A stretch of 64,000 nt of DNA from Scytonema sp. NUACC26 (GTDB lineage: Bacteria > Cyanobacteriota > Cyanobacteriia > Cyanobacteriales > Nostocaceae): NCBI RefSeq assembly GCF_045865695.1, contig NZ_BAACAP010000234.1, positions 1 to 64,000 of the forward strand, read 5' to 3'. Positions 1,993 through 8,203 of this stretch are shown here, in pieces (position 1 is the first letter of the stretch; each line of letters starts with the position of its first letter). The translations under genes and the position numbers were made by a program. The notes under the pieces were generated by a model that saw only the letters and a program-made list of their open reading frames with translations, had not been told where the DNA came from and ran no database searches.

Positions 1993-4191
1993 TCACACTA
2001 CTTGATAGATGAAACTTAAACTTGCCCATTGATTCACATCCAATACATAAGAATCAGAGGCTGTACCATTCATGTCCCTAACTGCACTAGCATTGTGTAA
2101 ATCTTGAAGCACAGCTTGTGCAACTTCTAGAGGATTCATCACAACTTGAATGTGCTGCTGTTCTGCTTTTGGGTTTTTAGCAGTTTCCAGAGCAGCCAGA
2201 GTTTGAGTAAAGGGCGCTGTGCTAAAAATAAGTTGGGTTTCAGCTAAAGAAGCTGGTGCTTGTACAACCCATTCAAAACCGGATGTTGTTTGCGGGAAAA
2301 CACGGATTTCTCCTGGCGGAATTACTAAATTGACAAGCTGTGATTGACTTTCCGAGTTTTCGGTTTCAGTTATTTTATACCAAGGAAATAACGCGATCGC
2401 TGTTTTACTGCTATTTAATCCCAACAACATTAAATATACAGGGCGATCGCTTGTATTTTCTATCCGATACTGTATCCGGTTACCAATGGTGACAGTAGGT
2501 ATATCCCCAGTTTCGGGGCTAAATGTCTTTTTACTCGATGCATCTGGACTTTGAGTTCGCAATGTTTCTCTTTGCATTAAAGTTCGCGGTGCTAGAGTCC
2601 CAAGCATCTCTAATGTTGCTTTCACACCCAATAGCGATGAACCCTCATTTGCTGTCAGTCGCCAGAGTTTTGCTGCTAGCAAGGTTTGTAGTTTTGGCAC
2701 TAAGCGGAGGGCTGCTACTTTTACAGCTTCTCCTGCTTCCCCAAAGGTACTGGGGGTATGTTCGCCACCTAAAGAAAATAAACCGTAACGGCTTGGAGAA
2801 ACCACTGTTGCATTTGTGATGGTCGATTCTTTACTCTTGGATTCTGGGAGTTTTCCAAACACCCAGTCAGCGAATTGTTCTCCTGCTACCGCAGTAGATA
2901 CGCGAGACACTGTTGAAAAGGCGCTTGTTGCATCTACTCTTTCTATTCTTTCTAGTTTGGTGTCAAGAGCAACTATTAAGCCCACATTTTTAGGTAACAC
3001 GCGCACTGCTTCTTGAATGAGTTTCCCTACTTGTGGTTCGCTCTCATTATTGACTATTTGCGCTTTTGCTGTTAAACCAGTGCGCGATCGCAATACCAGT
3101 TGAGAGTTTGCTATTGATGGAAGGAGAGTCAGGCGGGAATGAGATCCTAAATACTCCAATACGTTTAAAGGTATACCTCCCAACCACAGATGAAGAGTTT
3201 TCCCATCCTCCTCAATTCCCGTCACCACTCCGGACGCCCCCAAGTTTGAGTCTGGAAGAAAATGATTGGCAACAAATGCCCGTGCTTGTTGATTATTTTT
3301 ATCAATTTTATCAGCTATTATTGCAGGCTGCTGTTTAGTACTACCTATTTGCTGTAAAGAACCTGCCACGTGAGATATACAAACTTGAACTGTTGTTGCT
3401 GGGGTCGTTTCCCAGAGATATTGAGTTAGGGCATATGTAAATAATCCCGCACTAAACCCTGATAATTGTATCTCTCGTGCTTGTTGTTTGGGTTGAGAGG
3501 TTGCTGTCAGTACAACACTAGGCGAGGAACTAGATGCTTTATCCTTTAATTGTTTTTGTAACTGAAGTTCCTCTGCTACCACAACAGCATCTACTAGAAC
3601 TGGACGACTCCGAGTTTTCAATCCTGTAGGTAACGATGTTTGGGGAACGTAGTAACTTGTATCCAAGACTGTTGTTGCGCGATGCGTAGGTAGCGATCGC
3701 ACCAATAACAGCAAAGTTTCCTCTAATAAATAGTTGACATTTTTATCATCTTGTGGATTTTTCTCTTTAACAGGAACTAGAGCGTTGTACAGAGTATCTT
3801 GGGAAGTCTCCAGTCCAACGCGACTGCCATAACCACTAAAATGAAACACAGCTGCATCATCGGGCTGAACTTGCTTAACAAAGTGTTCTGAAAAAGCCAG
3901 CTCGATATCTTCCCTAGTTGCTTGAGCGTCCGTCAAGCAAAGAATATCCGACGGTTGAAAACCAAAGCGGTGAATCAACAGTTCCTTGTGCAGTTCTACA
4001 TCTGTCAAACAACCTGCAAGCTGTGAAAGTTGTGGATACTGATTAATGCCTACCAATAACGCCAACTTGCGCGGTGTTGGTAGTGCCAAAGCTTGAGAAT
4101 AGCGGTTTCCCAAAGTCAACCACTCGTTGTCAGTGACACCCATTACCGCGAGTATAGAGCCAATCCTTTGTAAAAACTTCCGCCGCTTCAT
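1993..4191 (-). CDS. TAT-signal caspase-family (peptidase C14) domain protein with a long C-terminal beta-rich domain. The catalytic Cys appears substituted, making this a likely pseudo-protease.
   Basis: N-terminus MKRRKFLQRIGSILAVMGV is a twin-arginine motif. C14 fold signature LALLVGINQYP...FHFSGYGS retains the His. The expected D-x-C-x-SG position reads VLDTSYY with no Cys. Confidence 0.8.
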   Translation of the reverse strand: MKRRKFLQRIGSILAVMGVTDNEWLTLGNRYSQALALPTPRKLALLVGINQYPQLSQLAGCLTDVELHKELLIHRFGFQPSDILCLTDAQATREDIELAFSEHFVKQVQPDDAAVFHFSGYGSRVGLETSQDTLYNALVPVKEKNPQDDKNVNYLLEETLLLLVRSLPTHRATTVLDTSYYVPQTSLPTGLKTRSRPVLVDAVVVAEELQLQKQLKDKASSSSPSVVLTATSQPKQQAREIQLSGFSAGLFTYALTQYLWETTPATTVQVCISHVAGSLQQIGSTKQQPAIIADKIDKNNQQARAFVANHFLPDSNLGASGVVTGIEEDGKTLHLWLGGIPLNVLEYLGSHSRLTLLPSIANSQLVLRSRTGLTAKAQIVNNESEPQVGKLIQEAVRVLPKNVGLIVALDTKLERIERVDATSAFSTVSRVSTAVAGEQFADWVFGKLPESKSKESTITNATVVSPSRYGLFSLGGEHTPSTFGEAGEAVKVAALRLVPKLQTLLAAKLWRLTANEGSSLLGVKATLEMLGTLAPRTLMQRETLRTQSPDASSKKTFSPETGDIPTVTIGNRIQYRIENTSDRPVYLMLLGLNSSKTAIALFPWYKITETENSESQSQLVNLVIPPGEIRVFPQTTSGFEWVVQAPASLAETQLIFSTAPFTQTLAALETAKNPKAEQQHIQVVMNPLEVAQAVLQDLHNASAVRDMNGTASDSYVLDVNQWASLSFIYQVV

Positions 4192-6022: not shown

Positions 6023-7903
6023 TCACCCTTTTACACAAACAACTTGCTTAAGAGTTGCTACAACTTCAACTAAATCGGCTTGATTGTTCATCACCTCATC
6101 TATAGGTTTGTAAGCACCTGGAATTTCATCCAAAACACCTTCATCTTTACGACACTCTACACCTTTTGTTTGCTCAATTAAATCGTCAAGAGTATAAACA
6201 TTCTTTGCCTTATTTCGAGATAGCAAACGACCTGCACCATGAGAGCAAGAACAAAAACTATTGGCACAACCTTTGCCTTTAACAATGTAAGATTTTGCCC
6301 CCATTGAACCAGGGATAATGCCATAGTCGTCTTTTTCTGCACGCACTGCACCCTTACGAGTGACGTATACATCCTCGCCAAAATGCAGTTCTTTTTCAGC
6401 GTAATTGTGATGGCAATTGACCTCTAGTAAAGGTTTAATTGATTTACCACCTGCTAAATGTTTCTCAACGATGTGCTTGAAACGTGCCATCATTACCTCA
6501 CGGTTGACACGCGCATAGTCCTGCGCCCATTGCAAATCGTGCCAGTATGCTTGGAATTCTGGCGTACCAGCAATAAAATAGGCTAAATCTGGGTCTGGCA
6601 ATTTATTGTCTGCCATTTTTGCTAAATTTTTAGCAGTGTTGATATGGCATTGAGCAAGATTATTGCCAATATGACGCGAACCGGAATGCAACATCAGCCA
6701 AACTTGGTTCTCTGTATCGAGGCAAACTTCTAGAAAATGATTTCCAGATCCGAGAGAACCCATTTGTTTCATCGCTTTACTTTGTAAATCTTGCACCCCT
6801 GGATGCAAGTCCTTAAAGTCGCGCCAGCTTTGCCAGTTGGTAATAGTTTTTTCAACCTCTTTATTTTCGTTAAATCCAGTAGGAATTGCTGCTTCAATAT
6901 CCAAGCGGATTTTTTTCAGTTTTCCTTCTAGTTTGTCACCATTAAATGGTGTTTTTATCGCCATCATACCACAGTTGTGAACGAAGACACCCGCTTTCAA
7001 AGCAAAGTTGTGATATTCAGGTACTGTAAAGCAATAAACATCTTGTGTACAGTCTAAAGATAGAACAGCTACAACTTTGTGATTACACTGATGTTCTTTT
7101 TTTCGGTGATTGTGTAAACCAATTGGAGTTTTGATTTGTGCATTACAAATGTCACAGGTATAGTGCAAATCACCAGAACGATCGCGATCGCCCATGAATT
7201 TTAAATTCTCAGGTCGGTTATCTGATTCATTAAAGTTTTGATGATGAATAACTGTTCTTTGTCCTTCAAATCTAGGAACCTTTCCTAGCAAGCCCGATCT
7301 AGCAATAATCCAATGTGCTTTGTGCCATCTACCTGAGTAGGGCTGAGCGATTAAGGTATAACCATCTTTGTCAGTGGTTGAGTAGAACGGCATCAAAGAT
7401 GTTCCAGATTGAAGATGTTGTGCTTCCTCATAGTTTCCATCTCTAAGCATAAATTGGTGATCTGGAGTGCAGATAATTTCTTCACCATTGTCCAGAATGA
7501 CTTTTACAAGAGGAGCATTACGTCTAGTTAACCTTGCTTTTGCCTTAGCTGCTACGACTTTTCCAGTGGAGGTACAAGAGTAAACTATAAATTCTTCATT
7601 ACATTCAGCTAAATCTTTTATAGAATACAATTTACCATCGACTAAAGGAATAAGAGTATCACCTACAAAGCAGCCAATATCCACGCCGACAGCAGCTGGG
7701 ATAATTGCTTCTTTTGTGGCAATGACTGAACCAACTAAGGCTCCTTTACCTAAGTGAACGTCTGGCATTAATGCTACGTGTTTAAATACAAATGGCAGTG
7801 ATGCTACATTCTTTGCCATCTTGGTTTCTTCTGTTCCCAATGGGTGGTTTGCCCAAGACAGGACAGGTGATGGTGTGGAAAGTTCTAATTCTTCGTAGGG
7901 CAT
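6023..7903 (-). CDS. rtcB: RNA-splicing ligase RtcB interrupted by a 233-aa intein.
   Basis: RtcB motifs PDVHLGKGALVGSV, GSGNHFLE and SCSHGAGR. The conserved GVDIGCGMM site is split as GVDIGC|FVGDTLIPLVDG...FVHN|CGMMAIKT. Confidence 0.95.
   Translation of the reverse strand: MPYEELELSTPSPVLSWANHPLGTEETKMAKNVASLPFVFKHVALMPDVHLGKGALVGSVIATKEAIIPAAVGVDIGCFVGDTLIPLVDGKLYSIKDLAECNEEFIVYSCTSTGKVVAAKAKARLTRRNAPLVKVILDNGEEIICTPDHQFMLRDGNYEEAQHLQSGTSLMPFYSTTDKDGYTLIAQPYSGRWHKAHWIIARSGLLGKVPRFEGQRTVIHHQNFNESDNRPENLKFMGDRDRSGDLHYTCDICNAQIKTPIGLHNHRKKEHQCNHKVVAVLSLDCTQDVYCFTVPEYHNFALKAGVFVHNCGMMAIKTPFNGDKLEGKLKKIRLDIEAAIPTGFNENKEVEKTITNWQSWRDFKDLHPGVQDLQSKAMKQMGSLGSGNHFLEVCLDTENQVWLMLHSGSRHIGNNLAQCHINTAKNLAKMADNKLPDPDLAYFIAGTPEFQAYWHDLQWAQDYARVNREVMMARFKHIVEKHLAGGKSIKPLLEVNCHHNYAEKELHFGEDVYVTRKGAVRAEKDDYGIIPGSMGAKSYIVKGKGCANSFCSCSHGAGRLLSRNKAKNVYTLDDLIEQTKGVECRKDEGVLDEIPGAYKPIDEVMNNQADLVEVVATLKQVVCVKG
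6974..7672 (-). mobile_element. Intein with HNH homing-endonuclease domain inserted at the RtcB GCG active-site motif.
   Basis: Cys1 (CFVGDTLIP, block A), C-terminal VHN followed by +1 Cys, and HNH signature VIHHQNFNESDNRPENL plus C/H-rich HYTCDICN...HNHRKKEHQCNH. Coordinates derived by codon counting (aa 78-310). Confidence 0.8.
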
Positions 7904-8203
7904 AATTAAATTTTGGATGCGTGGATTTTAGATGCGTGGATGCGTGGATTAATTGGATTGGATACTTTTACACAAGCTAATTGCATGAATTTCACTAACC
8001 TTAATACTGCTTGGGTAAGCCATAAATTTCAAACCGCGTAGGTTGGGCTTACCGTGTGAGAAACCCAACTTTGTTCGTGCTTTGTTGGGTTTCGTTCCTC
8101 AACCCAACCTACCTGTTTACTATTTCTATTTGTAATATAATTGTAGTATAAGAAATTAGCGATGGCAAGCCTTTAAAGTTCGCCCACAACCAAGCACGAA
8201 AAT

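Follow-up and report, generated by a model that had tools for sequence, protein, structure and literature searches.

An intein with a probable nuclease relic at the catalytic GCG motif of rtcB in the cyanobacterium Scytonema sp. NUACC26

Introduction

By frequency, RtcB ranks in the top 15 of bacterial intein hosts: 27 inteins are recorded in it, and Cyanobacteria are one of the phyla represented (Novikova et al., PMC4760082, Table 1). Here, the intein that interrupts the rtcB gene of the cyanobacterium Scytonema sp. NUACC26 was analyzed in a stretch of 64,000 nucleotides (contig NZ_BAACAP010000234.1, positions 1 to 64,000; hereafter the window). Elements of this kind are already catalogued: the NCBIfam 'exception' model NF052663.1 ('RtcB_rel_intein2', intein-containing RtcB family protein) is a curated family of exactly this element, and it accepts the window protein along its whole length (1298.8 bits, cut-off 1050). 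It also accepts a 715-amino-acid form from Nostoc calcicola FACHB-3891 (locus L011, 1299.3 bits) and a form with two inteins (locus L007, 1236.8 bits), and rejects an intein-less RtcB (locus L047, 844.9 bits). The model names the protein and is silent on the state of the nuclease; what is added here is the state of this copy.

The intein of RtcB from Pyrococcus horikoshii (PH1602, 'Pho Hyp-2') has the same insertion point, with the metal ligand Cys98 as its +1 residue. Its host is archaeal and belongs to another RtcB subfamily, with an extein of 481 amino acids versus 393 in Scytonema, and homology between the two inteins is shown for nothing beyond the HINT fold. The P. horikoshii intein is presumably about 390 amino acids long, with a LAGLIDADG nuclease; the comparison with it covers host and insertion point. 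The cyanobacterial class-1 inteins Npu and Ssp DnaE, and Ssp and Npu DnaB, lie in other host genes and are split inteins or mini-inteins without an HNH remnant. Gyrase inteins (P0064 in GyrA; P0067, P0070 and P0072 in GyrB) are 42–73% identical to parts of the window intein, and that of P0064 has an HNH-like motif whereas that of P0067 is a mini-intein, but their exteins and insertion sites differ. With respect to the phage HNH family phrog_7545 and colicin-type HNH nucleases, the window match stops at a deletion described below, and the helix bearing the H-x3-H motif is missing.

Results

Anatomy of the rtcB precursor

A single open reading frame on the minus strand encodes the rtcB precursor, of 626 amino acids plus a stop codon. 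Its identity as RtcB is given by Pfam PF01139 (E 4.5e-123), whose match is split in two stretches, and an exact-sequence look-up of the protein returned WP_407895910.1 of Scytonema sp. NUACC26, labelled 'RtcB family protein' in RefSeq. A previous examination of the letters alone (hereafter the sequence-only reading) had proposed that the conserved GVDIGCGMM of RtcB is split by a 233-amino-acid intein that begins with Cys (CFVGDTLIP) and ends with VHN followed by Cys. The coordinates it gave, 6974–7672, are exact to the base, and all these strings are present in the reading frame. The features of the host gene and of the splicing domain are as follows.

6023–7903, minus strand: rtcB precursor open reading frame (Pfam PF01139; NF052663.1, 1298.8 bits over positions 1–626 of 626)
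7673–7903, minus strand: N-extein, amino acids 1–77, ending ...AAVGVDIG (alignment to PDB 1uc2)
6974–7672, minus strand: intein, 699 nucleotides, 233 amino acids, precursor residues 78–310 (Pfam and TIGRFAM models above cut-off; HINT fold in the AlphaFold2 model; Foldseek; gap in 34 orthologues)
7670–7672, minus strand: Cys1, the block A nucleophile, codon TGC (read from the sequence)
7457–7468, minus strand: block B, TPDH (T69-x-x-H72; kept in every relative aligned)
6974–7042, minus strand: blocks F and G, DVYCFTVPEYHNFAL...GVFVHN, with the terminal His-Asn (TIGR01443 above cut-off)
6026–6973, minus strand: C-extein, amino acids 311–626, beginning with Cys+1 (CGMM; Cys+1 is the counterpart of P. 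horikoshii Cys98)

The insert is a true intein of class-1 type, as defined by Cys1, the TxxH of block B, the terminal His-Asn and Cys+1. Its boundaries read GVDIG/CFVGDTLIP and GVFVHN/CGMM, and the codon of the terminal Asn (AAC, 6974–6976) is adjoined on the minus strand by that of Cys+1 (TGT, 6971–6973). The search with intein models that the sequence-only reading had suggested gave scores above the cut-offs for Intein_splicing PF14890 (E 1e-19, 71 bits versus 35.8), for the N-terminal splicing region TIGR01445 (41.8 bits versus 24.5) and for the C-terminal splicing region TIGR01443 (27.2 bits versus 15.6), which rules out a chance match. The AlphaFold2 model of the 233 residues, built with 73 sequences, reached a mean predicted local distance difference test score (pLDDT) of 90.5, with low values only at residues 161–200, and adopted the HINT fold. 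The best Foldseek matches of this model in the PDB were the mini-inteins Ssp DnaB, Ssp DnaE, Npu DnaE, Mtu RecA and Npu DnaB (E 4e-9 to 1e-7, target template-modelling score 0.74–0.83), and all top 50 matches were inteins or bacterial intein-like (BIL)/HINT domains. The splicing domain is intact, and the intein would be expected to splice.

The host enzyme is an RNA-repair ligase that acts on 3'-phosphate and 5'-OH ends. The C-extein carries the motifs GSLGSGNHF, HSGSR, CHHN and CSHGAGR, and all catalytic motifs of RtcB for metal binding and for the His that accepts guanosine monophosphate (GMP) are intact, namely the D-x-x-C that splicing would create, GNHF, HSGSR, CHHN and CSHGAGR. Predicted masses are 69.8 kDa for the precursor, 43.4 kDa for spliced RtcB and 26.4 kDa for the intein, close to the figures of about 44 and 26 kDa put forward for the two products from the letters alone.

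Insertion site and intein-less alleles

In the alignment to P. horikoshii RtcB (PDB 1uc2), VGVDIGC of the window protein pairs with IGYDINC98, so that the Asp of the N-extein GVDIG is the counterpart of the metal ligand D95. Cys98 is the splice junction in P. horikoshii (PMC4150793). As judged from this alignment, the insertion point is the same as that of the classical archaeal RtcB intein, directly before the metal-ligand Cys of the GCG motif.

When one genome per species was scanned, 323 related loci emerged; the best 80 were retained, and all counts of sites and lengths given here come from them. Architectures were counted on genomic loci, since a protein search with the intein gave only fragments of up to 406 amino acids and no full-length precursor, missing even the 626-amino-acid window protein, which the searched collection contains. 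An intein was present at the same codon in 45 of the best 80 loci, and two loci were broken. In 34 loci, RtcB was uninterrupted, with 393 amino acids (626 minus 233), and read GVD(I/V)GCG(M/V/I) straight through the GCG site, which settles the comparison with insert-free homologues that the sequence-only reading had called for. Among these intein-less species are Scytonema tolypothrichoides, Tolypothrix campylonemoides, Fischerella muscicola PCC 7414 and Nostoc linckia NIES-25, whose exteins are about 86–90% identical to that of the window rtcB; the allele of L047 spans the insertion site as GCTGCTGTCGGCGTGGATATCGGT/TGCGGAATGTGC. The extra segment therefore lies at the GCG site and not elsewhere, and it possesses the Cys1 and terminal Asn that a conserved non-splicing domain would lack.

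The nuclease domain

At the occupied loci, 29 of the 45 inteins were 322 amino acids long. Among 31 full-length inteins (320–325 amino acids), the colicin-like nuclease site HH-x11-N-x8-H-x3-H was kept in 30 and a finger pattern, C-x2-C-x12-H-x4-H, in all 31, and the nuclease domain showed a mean column identity of 79%. The intein of N. calcicola, which is 94% identical to the window intein where the two align, was taken as the reference for the deletion; that of Tolypothrix bouteillei (L081) was rejected as its gene is frameshifted. The corresponding features of the window intein are these.

7190–7255, minus strand: HNH remnant, the beta-beta hairpin TVIHHQNFNESDNRPENLKFMG, intein residues 140–161, keeping HH and the structural Asn (partial Pfam HNH_3; phrog_7545; AlphaFold2 strands)
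7202–7249, minus strand: HNH motif IHHQNFNESDNRPENL, intein residues 142–157 (read from the sequence)
7163–7180, minus strand: deletion junction RSGDLH, intein residues 165–170 (blastn and side-by-side reading against L011 and L081; protein alignments)
7091–7156, minus strand: C2H2-like finger CDICNAQIKTPIGLHNHRKKEH, C-x2-C-x12-H-x4-H, intein residues 173–194 (pattern read from the sequence)

The sequence-only reading had recognized an HNH motif and a Cys/His cluster in the insert. Both are there, but the HNH site is incomplete, its H-x3-H part being lost: what is left is the N-terminal two-thirds of the HH-x11-N-x8-H-x3-H site. The window intein retains the beta-1 catalytic His and the structural Asn, with strands at residues 140–144 and 157–161 of the AlphaFold2 model. 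The first C-terminal His of the site (His23 of the motif) is replaced by Arg, and the second (His27) is deleted together with its helix. The hexapeptide RSGDLH stands in for about 95 amino acids (HSAYHRSL...EIANRY) of the full-length intein, a net in-frame loss of 267 nucleotides or 89 amino acids that corresponds to residues 167–255 of the L011 intein. At the protein level, MGDRD-RSGDLH-YTCDIC of the window intein is opposed to MGDRD-HSAYHRSL...EIANRY-YTCDIC of its relatives; at the DNA level, the window reads ...ATGGGCGATCGCGA/TCGTTCTGGTGATTTGCAC/TATACCTGTGAC..., versus 267 nucleotides more between the same flanks in L011 and L081. The missing part includes a helical domain of about 85 amino acids, likely the DNA-binding one.

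Structure predictions were consistent with this. In the window model there is no helix after beta-2, and the junction is disordered, with pLDDT below 50 at residues 166–168. The model of a full-length relative, P0028, shows a helix at residues 162–175 that bears H-x3-H, followed by further helices up to residue 257. P0028, which served solely as a structure-prediction target, itself appears to be a stand-alone intein-like reading frame of 331 amino acids (MCLVGG...) from a Kofleriaceae metagenome-assembled genome, with HNH and finger intact and no RtcB extein; its block B is degenerate (CASTQ for CTPDH) and its C-terminus, ...GVFLRT/CSSG, is without His-Asn.

In profile searches, Pfam HNH_3 matched the window intein below its cut-off (18.9 bits versus 24.8) and only over profile positions 19–37 of 46. 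The full-length L011 intein is also under this cut-off (19.2 bits), yet it matches phrog_7545. For this HNH family, E was 3e-10 over positions 64–145 with the full-length domain, and 4e-5 over positions 66–128 of 160 with the window remnant. The finger fits its pattern exactly and forms a beta-beta-alpha element in the AlphaFold2 models of both the window intein and the full-length relative, and its match to Pfam zf-C2H2 was weak (E 0.08, 13.8 bits, cut-off 25.2). Neither a PDB sequence search with the full-length intein nor a profile of the nuclease domain found an HNH structure; the profile gave only sub-threshold C2H2 matches, to the fingers of ZNF692, BCL11A and BCL6 (E 0.08–0.4).

With the metal-binding helix and the helical bundle lost, and a ligand His changed to Arg, the nuclease is almost certainly inactive. 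The description of the element as an HNH endonuclease and mobile parasite, also made from the letters alone, hence holds only for its ancestry; this copy is devoid of both C-terminal His ligands and of their helix.

No clear microhomology was found at the deletion end-points when the window was compared with L011 and L081, and no mechanism is claimed. The HIP1 octamer GCGATCGC (7184–7191) beside the junction was considered and discarded as being linked to the deletion, since it is also found in the undeleted L011 and L081.

Repeated shortening among relatives

Thirteen other inteins of the set are shortened (144–301 amino acids), and their deletion end-points differ, indicating that they arose by independent deletions. 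In three of them (L038, L056 and L009, 144–164 amino acids), the finger is wholly lost and the gene kept. Nuclease loss is thus repeated among relatives, an outcome expected under the homing-cycle model (for a review, see PMC7765530).

A different alteration was observed in Desmonostoc geniculatum HA4340-LM1 (L019). Its intein of 375 amino acids, otherwise full-length and 92% identical to the window intein, has the C2H2-like finger divided by an in-frame insertion of 53 amino acids (PAFLTSLKCRGAEGQRGRG...). This insertion, probably a small repeat or a miniature inverted-repeat transposable element, is a further way for the nuclease to decay. By N-extein, T. bouteillei VB521301_2 (L081, 4204–6452; proteins P0039 and P0073) is the closest relative (98.7%); its rtcB is called as at least four fragments, with frameshifts within an intein of the full-length type, which denotes either a pseudogene or an assembly error. 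Related RtcB inteins were also found in metagenome-assembled genomes labelled Acidobacteria and Myxococcota.

Selection and horizontal transfer

Relative to L011, the closest full-length intein, the ratio of nonsynonymous to synonymous substitution rates (dN/dS) was 0.04 for the N-terminal splicing region, 0.13 for the C-terminal one and 0.08 for the exteins, which points to purifying selection on the splicing domain. In the HNH remnant and finger the ratio was 0.18–0.19, from small counts. The synonymous rate itself (dS) was 0.28 in the intein versus 0.80 in the exteins. Third codon positions differed at 35 of 233 sites in the intein and at 129 of 393 in the exteins (Fisher p 5.6e-7), and a tract of 90–97% nucleotide identity coincides with the intein, the exteins being mostly 79–90% identical. 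The lower dS implies that the inteins of the window and of L011 diverged from each other later than their host genes did. These sequence comparisons indicate past horizontal homing, or gene conversion, between Nostocales lineages. Base composition (G+C fraction 0.36–0.41 in the intein versus 0.40–0.43 in the exteins) was too close to tell a foreign origin.

Other elements in rtcB genes and upstream of the window gene

Two further kinds of element were encountered in related rtcB genes. In L082 (6987–7231), an intein-bearing rtcB is also interrupted at the DNA level, after the GSLGGG codons of the His metal-ligand motif GNHF, by about 235 nucleotides without an open reading frame, after which the exon resumes with NHFIEV. 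Reading through it gives a recurrent tail, KRLPLTVVIQ followed by a stop codon. The same was seen in L083 and in proteins P0003, P0007, P0010, P0020 and P0021, from cyanobacterial or metagenomic hosts; the window gene does not have it. Against the Rfam group I intron model RF00028, this element scored 22.8 bits (E 0.0016), short of the gathering score of 50. In L007, L008 and L010 (open reading frames of 980–1061 amino acids from locus position 4001), a second, LAGLIDADG-like intein of about 410 amino acids (LLGVILADGT, LAGYLDGDGT) separates ...FCS from CSHGAGR, its insertion point being two residues ahead of the His that accepts GMP, and a shortened intein is also present at the GVDIG/CGMM-type site. 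Taken with the GCG-site intein, these elements mean that three kinds of element have invaded rtcB in Nostocales, and that three of its catalytic motifs have been hit.

Upstream of the window rtcB, three overlapping copies of TGGATGCGTGGATT lie just before the start codon (7914–7950), and a nested palindrome of 75 nucleotides (GTAGGTTGGG...GAAACCCAAC / GTTGGGTTTC...CCCAACCTAC) occupies the intergenic positions 8038–8112. The palindrome occurs a single time in the 64,000 nucleotides of the window.

Discussion

From the anatomy, fold, insertion site, empty alleles, deletion and synonymous discordance observed at this locus, we infer splicing and the loss of the nuclease. We hold it very likely that the window rtcB harbors a splicing class-1-type intein decayed from a 322-amino-acid homing intein, with the nuclease reduced to a relic. 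The 69.8-kDa precursor would be translated as one chain, from which the HINT domain would excise itself by an N-S acyl shift at Cys1, trans-thioesterification to Cys+1, cyclisation of Asn233 and an S-N shift. Joining of ...GVDIG to CGMM... would then create the metal-binding D-x-x-C site of the 43.4-kDa RtcB, a site unable to form before splicing. The ancestor would have combined a colicin-like HNH nuclease (HH-x11-N-x8-H-x3-H), the helical bundle of about 85 amino acids and the C2H2-like finger, and would have spread from one Nostocales rtcB gene to another, in horizontal transfers driven by its cutting of alleles without an intein. Both the helical bundle and the helix that binds the metal were lost in this lineage through the in-frame deletion of 267 nucleotides, together with the His-to-Arg change. 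The intein would now persist only through the need of RtcB for precise splicing, at the degeneration stage of the homing cycle.

Several observations weigh against this account. Block F has a Cys (VYCFTV) where many class-1 inteins have Asp, a trait common to the whole family, nuclease-intact copies included. The AlphaFold2 models are predictions, and the survey took in 80 of the 323 loci. The HNH remnant and finger show a dN/dS of 0.15–0.24, well below 1, a value that rests on 4–9 changes per class and on a comparison that takes in the L011/L019 branch, with its intact domain. In addition, some beta-beta-alpha-Me nucleases function with fewer ligands. The remnant might belong to a still active, mobile HNH homing endonuclease, its HH...N hairpin and finger being enough to cut or nick an empty rtcB. 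The kept HH and structural Asn, the intact finger conserved in all full-length relatives, the persisting phrog_7545 match and the low dN/dS fit such an activity. It is nevertheless improbable: both C-terminal His ligands are gone, the beta-beta-alpha-Me helix is missing from a model whose junction is disordered, the presumed DNA-binding domain is deleted, HNH_3 stays under its cut-off, and the many independent deletions in relatives show that a fixed intein can do without this domain.

Less probable again is that hairpin and finger have been co-opted, for instance as a metal-, redox- or nucleic-acid-sensing module that makes splicing conditional. That the deletion spared the finger exactly, that the remnant evolves under the constraint just mentioned and that Cys1, Cys+1 and a metal-ligand Cys meet at the junction would agree with co-option, but the 144–164-amino-acid inteins have lost the finger completely in genes that were kept, and both junction and finger are modelled with low confidence. 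A slightly smaller chance is given to an intein that no longer splices, leaving rtcB dead in this strain. The gene is not known to be essential in bacteria, and it is fragmented in T. bouteillei, the closest relative by N-extein; against this stand an uninterrupted frame of 626 codons, a deletion that is in frame, low dN/dS in splicing regions and exteins alike, and catalytic motifs that are intact in both intein and RtcB. Barely credible is the remaining explanation, a conserved non-splicing accessory domain of an RtcB subfamily, for which only the presence of the insert in many Nostocales speaks. The insert is precisely missing from 34 close orthologues, has every splicing residue, passes the cut-offs of the intein models and, left in place, would part the Asp from the Cys of the metal site. 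The homing nuclease of the window intein is therefore probably inactive, and the copy is most likely a relic, still competent to splice but no longer mobile.

The main value of this finding is correct annotation, and it carries little weight as discovery: the RefSeq name 'RtcB family protein' hides the fact that the mature enzyme would be the 393-amino-acid spliced product and the intein nuclease a relic. The 233-amino-acid Cys1/Cys+1 intein and its relatives of 144–164 amino acids, minimised by nature, could be tried as cis-splicing tools, a use for which many better-characterized cyanobacterial inteins already exist. Were the co-option of hairpin and finger true, RtcB would be switched on only under particular conditions, its active-site Cys being the +1 nucleophile. 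Within a single bacterial order, the locus and its relatives cleanly capture the homing cycle, with empty sites, intact inteins of 322 amino acids, at least 14 independent truncations and a signature of transfer in the synonymous rates.

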